Positions 17,064 through 30,413 of a DNA stretch of 45,862 nucleotides are shown here, piece after piece (within the stretch, counting starts at the first letter, position 1; every line of letters begins with the position of its first letter). The translations under genes were made by a program, and so were the position numbers. The stretch lies in contig JANWIZ010000036.1 of the NCBI GenBank assembly GCA_025449635.1, positions 1 through 45,862 of the forward strand, written 5' to 3'. The stretch comes from Patescibacteria group bacterium. GTDB lineage: Bacteria > Patescibacteriota > Microgenomatia > Woykebacterales > RBG-16-39-9b. The notes beneath the pieces were generated by a model. That model did not search any database. It had not been told where the DNA came from and saw only the letters and a program-made list of their open reading frames with translations.

Positions 17064-17110
17064 CAAAAGGGAAGATCGCGATGGTCACTGTTAGGTGGTC
17101 GCGATCTTTT
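17064..17110 (-). terminator. Intrinsic terminator of the zinc-finger gene
   Basis: AAGATCGCGA...TCGCGATCTT inverted repeat followed by CCCTTTTG on the - strand. Confidence 0.6.
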
Positions 17111-17363
17111 GGGTTTTGCCGCAAACTGGACAAGTGTTGTAACCTTCTCCCTCTGGAAATGGTCCGCCACAGTCTGGGCAACGCTTTTCGGATGGGGGAG
17201 TCCAGGGCAACCGCTGGGTTTTAACCTTTGGTCTTACTGTCGACTCCACCTCACTGCAGTCGTGATCTTCGATGTGTTCCTTACAGAACCGTCGATCACA
17301 CTTGCTACAGTATTGATCAGAGCGGTAAGGAAGATCCTTATCGCACTTAGCACATTCGTACAA
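17091..17363 (-). CDS. Small double zinc-finger protein (AN1-like finger plus C4 zinc ribbon)
   Basis: CAKC-x11-CSKC-x4-CKEH-x3-HDC, then CPDC...CPVC; SD AAGGAG before a TTG start; own terminator. Confidence 0.75.
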   Translation of the reverse strand: MYECAKCDKDLPYRSDQYCSKCDRRFCKEHIEDHDCSEVESTVRPKVKTQRLPWTPPSEKRCPDCGGPFPEGEGYNTCPVCGKTQKIATT

Positions 17364-17506
17364 TGGATAACTCCTTAACTACGCTCTATTTTTTATAGTA
17401 TAGCATATTTTAGCTTCAATTGCAACCCTATAGTCAATTAATTACTAATTTACTTGTACCTTACCTATATAATTAATCAGTACTTTAAAAAGGAGGCTAA
17501 TAGTCA

Positions 17507-19228: not shown

Positions 19229-19284
19229 CCGAATAATTATTCACTATAACTAGATAATTTTTCTTTTTTTGAACCGCTTATAGG

Positions 19285-19313
19285 TTGACAAAATCCTCTT
19301 CTCGGAGTAATAT
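19285..19313 (+). promoter_or_regulatory. Sigma70 promoter for candidate ncRNA-1
   Basis: TTGACA (19285-90), 17 bp, TAATAT (19308-13); predicted TSS ~19320 coincides with the first base of the first helix. Confidence 0.8.
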
Positions 19314-19319
19314 GCTCGA

Positions 19320-19653
19320 GCACGTTTGATCTCGCAGGCAAATGATCAACACTAACAACTGGACGGGGAAGTCCTGCACAGGGAGAGATCGACATGACGT
19401 GTGACGCTGGCGGTGGAAGTGGCTGACCAACGCGGGTGAAGGGAAGTGAAAGCTTTCACCGCCAGCACCTTATGCCGGACTGCGAGGAAGCGCGCGAAGA
19501 GCGACTGAGACATTATCCCCCTCATGTTCTCGCAGCCCGGCACCAACTTGATAATTTCAATTGGGGAGGGGTGTTAGCGGTAGAAGACCAAAGTCATGGA
19601 AAACTGGGAAAGCTCATGACGATGGAGTACTCTTCTACCGCTTTATTTTTTTT
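19320..19653 (+). ncRNA. Candidate large structured ncRNA-1 (~330 nt, family unknown)
   Basis: Helices 19320-33/19385-402, 19406-20/19452-66 (15 bp), 19473-88/19527-42, 19576-87/19631-42 (12 bp), then a U-tract; G-U pairs on + only; no credible long ORF. Confidence 0.75.
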
Positions 19654-20935: not shown

Positions 20936-21985
20936 CTAACTATAAACTCCAGCGACATTCACATGCCTGACGATCTGGTGTCGAAGCAAAGACTTGATCC
21001 GATTAACCAATCCATTGCTTTGTGGAATTCGCTGATCAAAACCAAAACTCTCCAGTACTATTTCACCGACAAATCCGTTCTGACGCAAGAAGGTCAGTAC
21101 TGACCGCAGAATCTTTGGATTCATACCAGCCAAAGAATCACCACGAGCAGCAGCAAGATCAAGCATCAACCGACCGGTTTTGTTGACATCATTGGTCAGT
21201 TCATGCATGTAGCGCACTAGATCCCGAACCCAAGCTCGGTAATCAGCTCCCATCATCTGCCCAAGTTCACCACCGCGATGAGCCAAATCCGGAGCGACTT
21301 GGTGCTCAGGCATCTCAAACTTTGCAGTTGCGATCGCTACCTGCTCCAAAAGTTCAGGATTGTACTGGACCTGAATGGCTGTAAAACGGTTATACCAAAC
21401 GGTGTGTAAAGTTTCTCGCTTTCTGACTCGTACGATTCGATCAGCTGCCACTGGCGAGCTCGCTCGTACAGTCTTTGCAACCACTCCATGATAACCGTCA
21501 GTGACTCGTTCTTGAATCGTACCAAACCAAGTAACCCCAATCGGCGTCAAAACTCCACGATGTTCAAACTCTCTAGCCAGATCTTCGCGGGCAATTCTGA
21601 TCAAATCAGAAGGGTAGTAACCTAGATCCACCAAACTATCGAAATAGGGAAGGTTGTGGGTTTTTTCGTCCGGACTCCACACCTCAGCATTAAATCGTCC
21701 AAGCCAACCAACCCCAAATAGATCCGCGACCATCTGAAACTGATGATCGTAAGTTTCAGTTGCTGCTTCGGTACGGTAACCTAGCATGAGAGCATCGCGA
21801 AAGTCCTCGATACCCATCCCTTCAGGGAGACTACGACCTACTGCCGAAACATCCAAACCTTCACCAATCTCTCTGGTCAAATCAGGATGAACAAATTCCC
21901 CAGGATCCTTCAGAATCGACAAACTGTAGTCCTCAAGAGCCTTAATACCAGCTTCAGGAACAAAATAGTCCATTTTGAGAACCAA
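20936..21985 (-). CDS. Soluble acyl-ACP desaturase (ferritin-like di-iron, DesA-like), copy 1
   Basis: Di-iron ligand pattern TEAAT...WSPDEKTH...QERVT...RETLH, and FEMP; SD AAGGAGGTGA before a TTG start. Confidence 0.82.
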   Translation of the reverse strand: MVLKMDYFVPEAGIKALEDYSLSILKDPGEFVHPDLTREIGEGLDVSAVGRSLPEGMGIEDFRDALMLGYRTEAATETYDHQFQMVADLFGVGWLGRFNAEVWSPDEKTHNLPYFDSLVDLGYYPSDLIRIAREDLAREFEHRGVLTPIGVTWFGTIQERVTDGYHGVVAKTVRASSPVAADRIVRVRKRETLHTVWYNRFTAIQVQYNPELLEQVAIATAKFEMPEHQVAPDLAHRGGELGQMMGADYRAWVRDLVRYMHELTNDVNKTGRLMLDLAAARGDSLAGMNPKILRSVLTFLRQNGFVGEIVLESFGFDQRIPQSNGLVNRIKSLLRHQIVRHVNVAGVYS

Positions 21986-22070
21986 TTCTCACCTCCTTTT
22001 TTGATCTCTACAGTAATTTTAGTATAACATCTGAGAAGTAACCGCACCTTAAAATCCAAATGGAGGAAAA

Positions 22071-23327
22071 ATGAGAGTCGTCATCACTGGAATGGGAGCG
22101 ATCACTCCTGTCGGCAAAACGCCAAAAGAGATCTTTTCCGCAGTTGTGAACAAAAAATCTGGGATTCGTGAGGTAAAATCGTTTCCGCTTGATGAAAATC
22201 ACCTTTGCCGTGTTGCTGGTGAGGTAGATTTTAATCCAAGCTGGTTGGATCGCTTGATTCATCGAAAGGATCAGCGAAAAATCGCTCGAGCCTCGCAATT
22301 TCAAATGTATGCGATCGATCAAGCACTTATTGACGCCAAACTTCTTTACAAACATTTGACTCCAAAGCTGGCTCAGCGTATTGGCATTTGCGTTGGTGCC
22401 AGTATGATCGGGATGTCAGATGTTATTTATGAGGTTGGTCGTTACCGAGATTCTGGTGCAAGATTTATTTCTGCGGCTTTGATCCAAAAAATCATGCCGA
22501 ATGCCGCTGCTGCTCGACCTTCACTACACAGTCAGATTCATGGTCCGGTCTATACGACATCAGCTGCTTGTGCAACAAGTGCAATGAGTATGATCGATGC
22601 TTATAAAATGATTACAGATTTGGAATGTGACGTTGTAGTAACTGGTGGTTGTGAAGATGCGCTTGATCCAATTTCTTTGGCTTCTTTTGGCAATTTGACA
22701 GCGCTTTCAACCAGCTGGAACGATCAACCGCATAAAGCACTTCGTCCGTTTGACTCAAAACGAAATGGTTTTGTACCAGGCGAGGGGGGAGTTGCTTTTG
22801 TTTTTGAAGGTTTGGATCACGCTCTAGCCAGAAAGGCAAATATTTACGCAGAAGTCGTTGGCTACTGTCGCAATTCCGATGCTCACAACATCGTTCACCC
22901 GCACCCTGAAGGGACTTGGCAAGCACTATGCATGTCAACCGCTCTGGAAAGGGCAGGGGTAACACCGTCAAATCTGAGCTATATCAATGCTCACGGAACA
23001 GGTACTCCGGAAGGAGACCCGTCTGAGTGCCGGGCAATCGCTACTTGTCTTGGTAAAGATGTGAAAAAAGTTCCAGTTTCTTCCAGCAAAGGTGTTCTCA
23101 GCCATTTGATGAGTGCCTCAGCTGCAGCTGAACTGTTAATTTGTGTCGAAGCGATAATGCAAAATATTATCCCTCCAACTACCAATCTAGAAGTTATTGA
23201 CGCTGAATGCACTGATCTTCACCATGTCACCAAAGCTTTCAGATCTGAAGTGACTGCAGTGATGAATAATTCGTTTGGATTTGGTGGGGAAAATACTGCC
23301 ATGGTTGTGAAAAAATTTACAGAATAA
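22071..23327 (+). CDS. fabF: Beta-ketoacyl-ACP synthase II
   Basis: RVVITGMG, SAACATS catalytic Cys, YINAHGTGT, SHL, NSFGFGG (Cys-His-His triad). Confidence 0.93.
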   Translation: MRVVITGMGAITPVGKTPKEIFSAVVNKKSGIREVKSFPLDENHLCRVAGEVDFNPSWLDRLIHRKDQRKIARASQFQMYAIDQALIDAKLLYKHLTPKLAQRIGICVGASMIGMSDVIYEVGRYRDSGARFISAALIQKIMPNAAAARPSLHSQIHGPVYTTSAACATSAMSMIDAYKMITDLECDVVVTGGCEDALDPISLASFGNLTALSTSWNDQPHKALRPFDSKRNGFVPGEGGVAFVFEGLDHALARKANIYAEVVGYCRNSDAHNIVHPHPEGTWQALCMSTALERAGVTPSNLSYINAHGTGTPEGDPSECRAIATCLGKDVKKVPVSSSKGVLSHLMSASAAAELLICVEAIMQNIIPPTTNLEVIDAECTDLHHVTKAFRSEVTAVMNNSFGFGGENTAMVVKKFTE

Positions 23328-23334
23328 ATCTGTT

Positions 23335-23376
23335 AAAAGCCCGTTGGGATATCAATCCAATCAATGGGCTTTTTTT
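23335..23376 (+). terminator. Intrinsic terminator of fabF
   Basis: AAAAGCCCGTTG...CAATGGGCTTTTTTT. Confidence 0.8.
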
Positions 23377-23441
23377 ATTACTTTTATAACTATTATGAGT
23401 CAACCTATTGCTTTTTTAATTCCTTTAGTAAATAATTTTTA

Positions 23442-23746
23442 TGTAATCCTGTGTGAAAGAGCGTGAAGAAAGGAGACCGCGCACTTTTCCGATATATAAA
23501 GGCGGCCAGACTCCATCATGACCCCCTCTAGTATCGTGATTCGCACAAAACAGAGCAGAGCTGGACAACACGGGCGCACATTCCCAACCGGATTTTGCCG
23601 CCCACACAGGATTGCACGACAACCAGAGCCCGGAGATAGACTGTCGATCCGCCGACAGGTGAAAACGCCGCACCCCCCGCAGATTTTTCACGAGAGTAAC
23701 GAGAGGAGCACTCTTTACTCTTTTTCTATTTTCGGGCAACTTTTTT
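23442..23746 (+). ncRNA. Candidate large structured ncRNA-2 (~305 nt, two multibranch domains, family unknown)
   Basis: 14-bp closing helix 23442-55/23603-16. 13-bp closing helix 23628-40/23725-37 encloses three abutting hairpins. U-tract at 23741-46. Promoter TTGCTT-17-AATAAT at 23408-36. Confidence 0.75.
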
Positions 23747-23750
23747 GAAT

Positions 23751-23787
23751 AAAAAAACCGCCCTAGTAGAGAAAACTAACGCGGTTA
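23751..23787 (-). terminator. Intrinsic terminator of desaturase 2
   Basis: - strand AACCGCGTTAG...CTAGGGCGGTTTTTTT. Confidence 0.75.
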
Positions 23788-23812
23788 AAACTTACCTCTC
23801 TAAAAACTTCAA

Positions 23813-24805
23813 TTAAGCAGCAACCAACTGGAAACTACCATCCGAAACCAACTGATAAACCTCAGCTCCTTCAGGTATTCCCTCCAAAGGCTTATTGGGT
23901 AGAACAACAACGGCATTCTCGGGAAGCTCTTGAACTGCAACTTCAGCTGCTCTGACCGCATTGCGATCTTTCAAACCCATACTCTGGATTGCTGGGCTAA
24001 GAACACTTCTACCCCAATCCATCAACGAGAAAACACCCGCCGAATAAACCGTTGCCTCGAATTGCTCCTTGTTGGGAAACCTAACTTCTGGCATACGATA
24101 CGTGGCGAAAGCCTGATTCATCGCTTCAATTGCAAGATCAGGTCGGTATCGTAGGTAAATGCGAAGAATTTCTCGAAAATTACTTTCGTGAGCACCTTCG
24201 TCACGTTCCACATACCAAACCATCATACTCAACACCAAAAGCAGAGGGTTTTTGGTTCTTTCATACTCTGCTTTGAGGAATTGGCGAAAGCGGTGATAGT
24301 TATGCTTGGTCTGACGCTCTTGGACAATACCATAAGCCGAAGCGTTATAAGGTGTCGCTGCGTGTCCGGTTTGGCGCTCAAACACCCACGTATCCTCAGA
24401 AGCCTCTTCCAAGAATTTGTCTACCTCTGCCTGTGTTGCCAATCCAGAGTCAACCAAACTATAACGAAAGGTCTGACCGTGCTTACGCTCTTCGACACCC
24501 CAACCAATTGTCGCTTCACGAATCGTAATACTGTCACCAGCACCTTGAATACCAGCGAAAACATAATCGTCAACAAACGACTCAACCCCAAGAAACCCAA
24601 AAAGCATTTCCCGAATTTCTGAAATAAGCTGAGCCGCTACTTCACGATACCGACGAAGTTCATCTCGCTCTTTAAGACGCTTCGGAAACCATGCACGAGC
24701 CACTACCGCTTTAGCAAAATAGGTATCGTATTGAGTACGAATAGCCTTCTGAATCGCGGTCTCTTTACCAACCAAAGTAATCGGATCGGTATTGAGATAA
24801 ACCAA
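23813..24805 (-). CDS. Soluble acyl-ACP desaturase (ferritin-like di-iron, DesA-like), copy 2
   Basis: GVESFVDDY...WGVEERKH...QERQT...RDEGAH...YRMP; SD AAGGAGGG before a TTG start. Confidence 0.87.
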   Translation of the reverse strand: MVYLNTDPITLVGKETAIQKAIRTQYDTYFAKAVVARAWFPKRLKERDELRRYREVAAQLISEIREMLFGFLGVESFVDDYVFAGIQGAGDSITIREATIGWGVEERKHGQTFRYSLVDSGLATQAEVDKFLEEASEDTWVFERQTGHAATPYNASAYGIVQERQTKHNYHRFRQFLKAEYERTKNPLLLVLSMMVWYVERDEGAHESNFREILRIYLRYRPDLAIEAMNQAFATYRMPEVRFPNKEQFEATVYSAGVFSLMDWGRSVLSPAIQSMGLKDRNAVRAAEVAVQELPENAVVVLPNKPLEGIPEGAEVYQLVSDGSFQLVAA

Positions 24806-24886: not shown

Positions 24887-25672
24887 TTAAAGTTTCGAGG
24901 CACGCCAACCAGCAGTTTGGGCTTCTTGCTCAGTACAAAACCAACGTTCACCTTTACTTTCATCAATACTAGTTTTGTCGTAATAACTACCATTAGGAAT
25001 ATGGTAGATCTTTTCACCAGAACTGGAGATGTTTCCTTTGATTTTACAATCAGAATTTGAGTTTAGGGTGGTTAGAGAATAATTTGTACTTGACTGCACC
25101 TGACCAGAACCAAGACTACAACTGCCCCAAAGCCCTTTTTTACTGTTTCGGGCAGAGGTTTCAGCTGCTTTAAATTTGTCTTGATACTTTACATCTGGAG
25201 GGTAAGAAGCTGCTTTGCCAAAGCCCTCACTAACCAAGTATTCATTTACAAAAGTTTCGTCAACATAGACGTACCGAAGCAATCGTCCATATCGGTCAGT
25301 CTCAGAAACATCCTTCTCCAAACGGACTTTTTTACCTTCGACCAAGTCCTTGTTTTTATTTGAAGCTTCTTTTCCGTAACAGCCGACTGTCTGTCTGGGA
25401 TCTACAGTCTCTGGGGTATCAATACCGATATAGCGAACTTTTTGTCCACCCTCGATCTCGATGGTGTCGCCGTCAACAATTTTTGTAACTAAGATACCTT
25501 CTTGGGAATTACTTCCTGAATTAGAGGTGGTATTTTCTGATTGTTCTGTTTCTGTAGAATTATTGCCAGATTTATTAACAGTAATATTTTGAGAGGATAA
25601 CCCTTGTGAAAAAAGTACCAAAACAAGAAATACGGCAAACCCAAGTAGAGGATAGAAAAGTTTTTCTTTCAT
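24887..25672 (-). CDS. Membrane-anchored thermonuclease (SNase) with a C-terminal Ada-like/CxIKGNI domain
   Basis: IVDGDTI, VRYIGIDTPE, DRYGRLLRY, ARNSKKGLW; CKIKGNIS..KIYH..WFCTEQEA. Confidence 0.92.
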   Translation of the reverse strand: MKEKLFYPLLGFAVFLVLVLFSQGLSSQNITVNKSGNNSTETEQSENTTSNSGSNSQEGILVTKIVDGDTIEIEGGQKVRYIGIDTPETVDPRQTVGCYGKEASNKNKDLVEGKKVRLEKDVSETDRYGRLLRYVYVDETFVNEYLVSEGFGKAASYPPDVKYQDKFKAAETSARNSKKGLWGSCSLGSGQVQSSTNYSLTTLNSNSDCKIKGNISSSGEKIYHIPNGSYYDKTSIDESKGERWFCTEQEAQTAGWRASKL

Positions 25673-26718: not shown

Positions 26719-27240
26719 TTGCAACAGAAAGGCAAATTGTGGTTTAGTAAAAGAGTGAACAATGATTATTTAAAAGGTAGCTTTCTAGCATTTCTGGTTT
26801 TAAGCGCGACAGTTGGATTAGTCTATTTGTCTCAAAACTTTTCTGAAACGAAATCATTTTCAAAAGTAAATACAAACTCAGAAAGGAAACTTCAGATCGG
26901 GTATACGACTATAACTGTGGAGACAGCCGATTCGCCAGTCGAGCAAGCTAAGGGTTTGTCTGGTCGAGAAAGTTTAGGAGAAAACCGTGGAATGTACTTC
27001 GTTCTAGAAAAAAGAGGGTTAATCAGTTTTTGGATGAAAGAGATGAAATTTTCGATTGACATCATTTGGGTCGACAGAGATACGATAATCGGTTTTGTCG
27101 AAAACGCCCCGCTACCATCAGAAGAGGGTATCCCAACTTTCAAATCTCCTTCTCCAGTAACCCACGTACTTGAAGTCAACGCTGGTTTTGTACAACAACA
27201 CGATTTGGAAGTTGGTCAGGAAATTGTTGAGCTAAAATAA
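26719..27240 (+). CDS. DUF192-family protein
   Basis: VETADS...AKGLSGR...GMYF...FWMKEMKFSIDIIW...VLEVNAG; N-terminal TM helix; start uncertain. Confidence 0.85.
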   Translation: MQQKGKLWFSKRVNNDYLKGSFLAFLVLSATVGLVYLSQNFSETKSFSKVNTNSERKLQIGYTTITVETADSPVEQAKGLSGRESLGENRGMYFVLEKRGLISFWMKEMKFSIDIIWVDRDTIIGFVENAPLPSEEGIPTFKSPSPVTHVLEVNAGFVQQHDLEVGQEIVELK

Positions 27241-30125: not shown

Positions 30126-30413
30126 GTGGAAATTTCAACTCTAAACACCCAAGAGGGAGACCGAAAGGTCACTCTCGACACCCGGAGCGTGAACGGTCGC
30201 AACACCGCCAAAGAAATGATCGAGAGTAAGCTCAAAGAGGGTGCAGCGCTCTTCATCAAGATCAACGGCGATGACTTTCGAGTCAAAGGCTACGACCCGA
30301 AGAAAGACGAGCTGATTGTGCGTCGCAACACAATAGTTGCTCGACAGCAAACGTTCCGTTACCCGGGTCACGAAGCGAAACTCACGATCGTTCCTCCCCG
30401 CGCCGGCGGCTAG
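30126..30413 (+). CDS. Small hypothetical protein with a ubiquitin-like C-terminal Gly-Gly
   Basis: 95 aa ending LTIVPPRAGG-stop; SD AAGGAG before a GTG start; 2 bp from the next ATG. Confidence 0.75.
   Translation: MEISTLNTQEGDRKVTLDTRSVNGRNTAKEMIESKLKEGAALFIKINGDDFRVKGYDPKKDELIVRRNTIVARQQTFRYPGHEAKLTIVPPRAGG

Follow-up and report, generated by a model that had tools for sequence, protein, structure and literature searches.

The 45,862-nucleotide (nt) contig JANWIZ010000036.1 of assembly GCA_025449635.1, which derives from a member of the Patescibacteria (Microgenomatia, Woykebacterales, RBG-16-39-9b) and was analysed over its whole length (hereafter the window), carries a 486-nt gap between a fabF-like gene on the + strand and a convergent desaturase-like gene on the - strand. 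Most of this gap is taken up by an element (23442-23746, + strand) that is predicted to fold into two multibranch domains and that a preliminary description, made from the sequence alone, had interpreted as a discrete non-coding RNA (ncRNA). The source genome comprises 760,548 bases in 46 contigs and is 83% complete, the genomes of its relatives being 0.6-1.8 Mb in size; these sizes suggest an ultra-small bacterium of the Candidate Phyla Radiation type. In our judgment the element is probably a credible but unproven RNA gene that belongs to no known family. The features of the locus on which the following analysis draws, including two open reading frames (ORFs) that overlap the element, are:

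22071-23327, + strand: fabF-like beta-ketoacyl synthase gene (ORF list and Pfam)
23335-23380, + strand: fabF-like terminator, a hairpin followed by seven U, forming the upstream boundary
23408-23436, + strand: weak, candidate promoter-like site, TTGCTT and AATAAT separated by 17 nt
23442-23616, + strand: domain 1, multibranch and closed by helix P1 (from the fold and base-pair probabilities)
23442-23454 / 23604-23616, + strand: helix P1, 13 bp
23455-23488, + strand: hairpin P2, with a purine-rich loop that contains AAGGAG
23489-23571, + strand: ill-defined centre of domain 1
23572-23603, + strand: GGGCG/CGCCC arm
23617-23627, + strand: A- and C-rich linker between the domains (CGACAACCAGA), unpaired in the fold
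23628-23737, + strand: domain 2, a 110-nt four-way junction
23628-23640 / 23725-23737, + strand: closing stem of domain 2, 13 bp with two G-U pairs in the fold
23641-23658, 23659-23691 (with a C-rich loop), and 23692-23722, + strand: abutting hairpins of domain 2
23738-23746, + strand: AAC then six U, a putative terminator together with the domain 2 stem and the likely 3' end, as read from the sequence
23752-23790, - strand: desaturase-like terminator, a hairpin followed by seven U, forming the downstream boundary
23813-24805, - strand: desaturase-like gene (FA_desaturase_2, a soluble fatty-acid desaturase domain; ORF and Pfam)
23518-23748, + strand: 76-amino acid (aa) ORF, judged spurious (no homologue)
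23425-23739, - strand: 104-aa ORF with a TTG start, judged spurious (one artefactual protein hit, no Pfam match)

The minimum free energy (MFE) structure of the whole element on the + strand has an energy of -105.0 kcal/mol and contains 95 pairs (51 G-C, 36 A-U, and 8 G-U), with 190 of the 305 nt paired. All of the helices listed in the preliminary description were found where it had placed them, and its account of domain 2 as a near-perfect four-way junction is borne out by our predictions, as the helices of this domain have probabilities of 0.87-1.00 and its MFE structure (-48.1 kcal/mol) is also the centroid and holds 0.28 of the ensemble. The models indicate that domain 2 is solid and that the core of domain 1 is ill-defined. 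For the latter domain, the proposed P1 (mean base-pair probability of 0.97), P2 (0.79 for 23455-59/23484-88 and 0.98 for 23461-65/23478-82), and GGGCG arm (0.71) were all recovered, but the central arm that had been described with them (CCAG-CTC/GAG-CTGG plus ATCATGA/TCGTGAT) has a probability of 0.27-0.34 and, while present in the MFE fold, is absent from the centroid. A pairing between the two domains, of GGCGG (23501-05) with CCGCC (23649-53), had also been suggested. Both sequences are present. However, C23653 is engaged in another pair, and two other stretches, GCCGCC (23597-602) and CGCCGC (23668-73), compete as partners; since only five bases are involved, with two or more competitors and one of the bases taken, the pseudoknot is at the level of chance.

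Folding strength was assessed against shuffled sequences that preserve dinucleotide composition. The whole element has a z-score (z) of -6.22 on the + strand, with none of 100 shuffles as good, domain 2 has a z of -6.93 (0 of 200 shuffles as good) and domain 1 a z of -3.42 (1 of 200). For controls from the same genome, the corresponding values are -3.77 for the RNase P RNA and -3.53 for a window of the fabF coding sequence. Long-range helices of at least 12 bp with at most two G-U pairs occur 235 times on the + strand and 264 times on the - strand genome-wide, our own composition-based estimate being approximately 250 per strand, and two such helices are adjacent at 10 places in the genome. 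With 10 such places, the closing stems are weak evidence when taken by themselves. At the remaining nine, however, z is +0.5 to -2.1, as opposed to -7.06 at the element; the unusual feature is the filling of the stem interiors and not the closing stems.

The absolute energies of the two strands are nearly equal (-105.0 kcal/mol for the + strand and -103.8 kcal/mol for the - strand), but the z of the whole element is only -2.0 on the - strand. For domain 2, the + strand (-48.1 kcal/mol, z -6.93) is clearly distinguished from the - strand (-41.8 kcal/mol, z -3.25). Seven of the eight G-U pairs are situated in helices with a probability of at least 0.79, and when the + strand structure is mirrored on the - strand these eight pairs are broken, taking the energy from -105 to -83 kcal/mol, a loss of 22 kcal/mol. 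The unpaired bases of the + strand are 41% A, 30% C, and 10% G, and an A-rich, G-poor pattern of this type is typical of natural structured RNAs. Overall, the modelling favours an RNA of the + strand over a palindrome acting at the DNA level. The element, which is present as a single copy in the genome, is also distinctive in its composition, with a GC content of 51.5% (55.6% in its best 250-nt stretch) vs. 38.3% for the genome. Of the 80 intergenic regions that are 250 nt or longer, only three would exceed that maximum of 55.6%, the region of the RNase P RNA having 46.8%.

The preliminary description had held that the element is insulated by terminators on both sides and is not an untranslated region. 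Both flanking hairpins do fold as claimed. That of the fabF-like gene, at -19.1 kcal/mol and with a z of -4.63 that none of 200 shuffles equalled, lies 60 nt upstream of the element, and that of the desaturase-like gene gives -16.2 kcal/mol for 23745-23812; a strict terminator scanner lists neither of them because their loops or bulges are outside its rules. Given the strength of the fabF terminator, with its seven U, and that no co-directional gene follows, we agree that the element is probably not an untranslated region. A role as a riboswitch or leader is unlikely as well, since the next gene is convergent and there is no co-directional gene downstream (the next + strand ORF of at least 100 aa begins at 26719). 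The promoter-like site upstream of the element, read from the sequence, has 8 of 12 matches to a consensus site (3/6 and 5/6 for the two hexamers), and a start approximately 6-7 nt past it, at about 23442-23444, would coincide with the first base of P1. At the other end, the AAC and six U that follow the domain 2 stem may form a terminator with it. The scanner would miss a terminator of this kind, because the U run is 3 nt off the stem and the "loop" is the whole of the domain.

Based on these features, our tentative preference is for a stand-alone, lineage-specific gene on the + strand for a structured ncRNA of approximately 300 nt that would act through its shape. Transcription would begin near 23442, just past the weak sigma-70-like site, and the RNA would fold co-transcriptionally into two independently closed domains, with the closing stem of domain 2 and the six U serving to end and to protect the transcript near 23746. 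The RNA would then act in trans via its three-dimensional shape, as a scaffold for binding a protein or ligand and not as a base-pairing regulator, and the likely candidates for its contact surfaces are the purine-rich loop with AAGGAG, the loops rich in A and C that are left exposed, and the centre of domain 1, which is flexible. Shape-based action is suggested by the high proportion of paired bases, by the two junctions closed by long stems, and by there being no antisense match of at least 15 nt elsewhere in the genome (the two 15-nt matches that were found are same-sense and U-rich). We infer transcription, both ends of the transcript, and the mode of action. The interpretation of the element as a discrete ncRNA in the preliminary description is thus partly supported, its predicted structure being exceptional for its composition and specific to the + strand.

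A number of results weigh against this interpretation, the first of them concerning the transcript itself and its fold. A search of sequencing runs listed no RNA run that contains the element, a result that is uninformative either way and that leaves transcription unsupported. The TTGCTT-17-AATAAT site is the sole promoter candidate on the + strand and is below the threshold of the scanner, which is a weak point against the proposal, and the U run at the 3' end begins 3 nt past the domain 2 stem. To this are added the ill-defined centre of domain 1 and the better energy of domain 1 on the - strand (-60.5 kcal/mol vs. -54.9 kcal/mol on the + strand). In a composition regression over 5016 windows of the genome, the element is at -3.47 standard deviations and 20 windows are as good or better; among the 40 best windows of this regression, six reach a shuffle z of -6 or below, placing the element in the top handful of the genome without its being unique.

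The second set of results concerns conservation. The homologue search that the preliminary description had proposed gave nothing beyond two soil contigs that are approximately 91-95% alike to the element. By blastn, 60 relatives gave no match to the element, the only two hits being to the AT-rich first 39 bases of the query. Covariance models, one per domain, were built from single sequences and so have a limited reach; each had no match in 150 genomes of the class or, at E ≤ 5, in the 20 other genomes of the order, and the domain 2 model had none in 150 genomes of the phylum. Exact words of 21-23 nt had no hits in collections of metagenome, genome, and viral contigs. In the second of these contigs, the 3' strand of P1 is altered at two adjacent positions, with the 5' strand outside the view of the contig, and in the soil relative divergence is about equal inside the element and in its flank. 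There is no covariation support for the fold, no relative that is distant enough having been found, and an RNA confined to one genus, while possible, has a weak prior.

The two soil contigs, which came from a soil-metagenome DNA run that contains 0.06 of the sampled words of the sequence, are the only relatives seen, and their sequences indicate that diverged relatives exist in nature. The first corresponds to 23360-23528 with eight substitutions and two gaps, so that the left junction of the element is kept in an independent strain. Its 59 nt at 23428-23486, which span the -10 site, the 5' strand of P1, and most of P2, have no listed difference, and the upstream differences (23401, 23419, and 23427) leave both promoter-like hexamers unchanged; an A-U pair located where P2 ends is disrupted by a change at 23487. 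The second corresponds to 23628-23706 with six substitutions and one gap, and both of its listed changes in domain 2 (23666 and 23673) are at unpaired positions. To the 5' side of 23628 its letters are unlike the linker, but a variant of the P1 3' strand is still recognisable. Two further searches gave similarly empty results: both domain models, run with filters off on four desaturase-syntenic loci, returned only noise, and blastn against phage and plasmid collections had no hits.

The best surviving alternative, which we regard as unlikely although deserving of serious attention, is that the element is a functionless young or decaying sequence, such as the remnant of a gene or mobile element that came in with a horizontally acquired fabF/desaturase island, and that it folds well by accident. 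Its confinement to one lineage would fit such a relic, and the island around it is an accessory one and itself rare, as the desaturase-like gene is found in four of 401 genomes of the class (the source genome counted), all of one family. In one relative, G016, genes for DinB-like and desaturase-like proteins are direct neighbours with a gap of 413 nt, so that the element, along with the fabF-like gene and the second of the desaturase-like genes, looks like an insertion or else like a loss in G016. That the genome has other GC-rich islands and at least six other windows with a z of -6 or below is also in keeping with a relic, as is a sub-threshold match on the + frame to DUF4131, the N-terminal domain of ComEC. 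This match, of the 76-aa ORF, spans 23620-23745 (E of approximately 1e-3; 19.3-19.6 bits by hmmscan and 17.4 bits in a six-frame search, for a cut-off of 31.6 bits) and is the best match to DUF4131 in the genome. The model, however, has matches below its cut-off in seven of 14 control genomes, archaea included and some of them genomes without ComEC, and no longer protein shares the similarity, leading us to reject the likeness as probable noise. Neither of the long frames has a protein homologue, and the element is single copy in the genome and was not matched by anything in the collections of phages and plasmids. Moreover, a relic offers no reason for a fold specific to a single strand with G-U pairs in its main helices, or for a junction in which hardly any base is left unpaired and whose ensemble frequency is 0.28.

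The other strongly folding windows are of some interest in their own right. Those with a z of -6 or below are C8:1801-2700, C3:4801-5100, C10:39901-40200, C32:15001-15300, and C38:5101-5400, none of which has an Rfam hit or resembles the element or any of the others. In several of them there are strong local hairpins or small ORFs of high GC content, and the best folding windows of the genome are mostly ones with little cover by ORFs of at least 100 aa. As to the island, the lipid genes extend over 20936-24805 and consist of two desaturase-like ORFs and the fabF-like synthase, with DegV-like and nuclease genes adjoining. Pfam searches of the four neighbouring ORFs (20936-21985, 22071-23327, 23813-24805, and 24887-25672) identified ketoacyl synthase, FA_desaturase_2 (in two ORFs, one below the cut-off), and SNase domains; DinB and DegV, as read from the translations, are more distant neighbours. 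A query with the desaturase-like protein returned no loci from the genome or metagenome contig collections.

We consider it improbable that the element acts in cis, as an extended 3' region or insulator of the two convergent genes in which domain 2 would be a back-up terminator or a block to exonucleases. Such a role would account for the position of the element exactly between two convergent genes and for the U run behind the domain 2 stem, and the flanking hairpins could work bidirectionally. With the strong fabF terminator 60 nt upstream, however, little read-through is expected, and a back-up terminator needs approximately 40 nt, not 300 nt with two multibranch domains. In addition, the relatives that have the desaturase-like gene manage with a gap of approximately 90-120 nt at the matching place, G016 excepted.

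That the element encodes a small protein, either the 76-aa product of the + strand or the 104-aa product of the - strand, seems to us very unlikely. Both frames are open over most of the element, and GC-rich small ORFs are present in other intergenic-looking regions of the genome. Yet the 76-aa ORF, whose conservation the preliminary description had named as evidence against an ncRNA, found no homologue when compared with proteins as long as itself or longer, and its product would be very basic and proline-rich with no hydrophobic core. The 104-aa ORF has a TTG start without a Shine-Dalgarno sequence, no Pfam match, and no usable Atlas hit, and Atlas recognition of the candidates is low. Among 1.84 billion protein representatives it had one hit with E ≤ 0.001, to a tandem repeat (3 x 64 aa) on a 334-kb ENA contig; we rejected this as homology because the score was summed over three weak repeats. 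No Pfam match of either frame exceeds its cut-off. Indels in the soil relatives would also break the frames: a 2-nt deletion at 23494 would shift that of the 104-aa ORF and a 1-nt deletion at 23673, which is in a C run at a depth of 2.6 and is possibly an error, would shift both. By eye, two other gaps of the window that are seemingly intergenic, 17110-17370 (- strand) and 30127-30413 (+ strand), carry small GC-rich ORFs, namely a Cys-rich one on the - strand and one of approximately 95 aa behind a ribosome-binding site.

There is similarly little to recommend the idea that the element is a highly divergent version of a known RNA, such as 6S RNA, transfer-messenger RNA (tmRNA), the RNA of the signal recognition particle (SRP), a retron RNA, or a transposon guide RNA. 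It draws on the fact that Rfam finds no tmRNA, SRP RNA, or 6S RNA in the 83%-complete genome, so that some expected RNAs are unaccounted for. A scan of the window with Rfam 15 (4227 models, raiA, OLE, ROOL, GOLLD, and HEARO among them), a check that the preliminary description had called for, found no family at its gathering score, and with lax filters 23300-23830 gave six matches, all with E ≥ 1.1 and scores of 14.6-18.9 bits and mostly over the flanking terminator hairpins. The RNase P RNA (model RF00010) is on another contig (C39:9266-9642, 84.7 bits). For tmRNA, ARAGORN found none in the window or the genome and no tRNA-like ends at the element, and the RF00023 model matched only tRNA-sized stretches elsewhere; as a canonical tmRNA (92-157 bits) is present in 16 of 16 relatives of the family, the missing copy is probably in the unassembled 17% of the genome. 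The SRP models RF00169 and RF01854 have no match on the element. In the family as a whole (17 genomes, 16 of them at least 90% complete), neither the small and large SRP RNA models nor the Ffh M domain (Pfam SRP_SPB) matched in any genome, while the same searches match in 9-14 of 14 control genomes. No SRP RNA is therefore to be expected here, and in this lineage the SRP ribonucleoprotein may be either missing or strongly diverged. 6S RNA is a rod-like hairpin of approximately 180 nt with a large central bubble, whereas the element folds as two branched domains, and its model RF00013 has no match in the genome. Nor do the four neighbouring ORFs contain, by Pfam, domains of the partners of retron, TnpB/IscB, or IS110 RNAs (reverse transcriptase, TnpB, IscB, or recombinase). 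A housekeeping RNA should, finally, recur in the relatives, and the element does not.

A DNA-level function for the two long inverted repeats (13 bp each), as a cruciform, single-strand origin, or recombination site, would fit the near-equal strand energies and is just as doubtful, as the eight G-U pairs become A-C mismatches on the other strand, the element is single copy, Pfam detects no domain for replication, integration, or transposition in the four ORFs around it, and the 149 nt between the arms of P1 would be unfavourable for cruciform extrusion.

Returning to an RNA gene as our preferred interpretation, its closest parallels appear to be the orphan, complex-folded ncRNAs, such as the raiA motif RNA, which the published GC-IGR and DIMPL studies report as long GC-rich intergenic regions in AT-rich genomes (PMC6429828, PMC8632094, PMC11109978, PMC8723152, PMC11706538). 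The element resembles them in its 486-nt intergenic region, in a GC content that greatly exceeds the genome mean, in having several multi-stem junctions, promoter-like and terminator-like signals of its own, and no co-directional gene beside it, and in lacking an assigned function. It differs in that the classes, as presented there, are defined by conservation and covariation across many genomes, whereas the element has no homologue beyond the near-identical soil relatives. If real, it would be a new RNA family, although orphan structured ncRNAs from long, GC-rich intergenic regions are as a kind already familiar.

Other comparisons are instructive with respect to the individual parts of the structure. 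Four-way junctions are found in the SAM-I and cobalamin riboswitches and in the hairpin and twister-sister ribozymes. Domain 2 is like the architectures of these aptamers and ribozymes, being a compact unit of approximately 110 nt with a stem, three arms, and almost no unpaired bases at the junction; unlike them, it has no Rfam score at E values up to 10 and no downstream gene to regulate. The element also shares features with terminator-ended, trans-acting small RNAs, in that it is an independent intergenic unit with a 3' stem and U run and with C-rich and purine-rich loops. It is, however, much longer and more fully paired than typical base-pairing small RNAs, it has no antisense target beyond chance, and by our own reading the AAGGAGG ribosome-binding sites of the window could not pair with its C-rich loops.

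The intergenic region between the DinB-like and desaturase-like genes of G016 (L017:1076-1488) likewise adjoins a desaturase-like terminator and contains, at L017:1334-1421 (+ strand, z -3.0), a branched domain closed by a 12-bp stem that, like domain 2, is preceded by GAG and followed by ACUUUU. The G016 domain is a three-way junction with 62 interior bases, compared to 86 in domain 2. Homology is unsupported, as the score is 7.0 bits (E of 0.087 within 461 nt) with 7.2 bits on the opposite strand and MAFFT fails to reproduce the structural alignment, and we regard the likeness as a lead only.

The window contains a second orphan structured region, at 19229-19653 on the + strand, that is probably the "ncRNA-1" of the preliminary description. 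It is predicted to adopt a multibranch fold of approximately 330 nt (-144 kcal/mol; z of -4.9 on the + strand and -3.9 on the - strand), is preceded by a strong promoter-like site, TTGACA-17-TAATAT (19285-19313, 10 of 12 matches), and terminates in a long hairpin with a U run behind it. Rfam has no hit there, and comparison with 23442-23746 showed no sequence likeness between the two. We would offer only as a long shot that the element is the founding member of a new class of complex-folded RNA, confined to a single lineage of ultra-small soil bacteria of the Candidate Phyla Radiation type and being either a ligand- or protein-binding RNA or a ribozyme, that works together with the lipid island, for instance in the sensing or handling of scavenged host lipids or acyl carriers. 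If that were true, the element and the unrelated structured RNA situated 4 kb away (approximately 19320-19650) would together form a small group of RNA genes specific to the lineage.

The predicted structure is striking and the host group is under-explored, the literature that we searched containing no description of structured ncRNAs from this group of bacteria. It is usually from RNAs of this type that new ribozymes, riboswitch-like sensors, and RNA-protein machines have come. Should the element prove to be an accident, it would demonstrate that conservation is not required for a clean four-way junction and an extreme folding z-score to arise. The common view of bacteria with genomes as small as this one is that they retain only essentials; an elaborately folded RNA gene of 300 nt in one lineage, if real, would accordingly represent a function of recent origin or else an uncommon accessory trait of its host.

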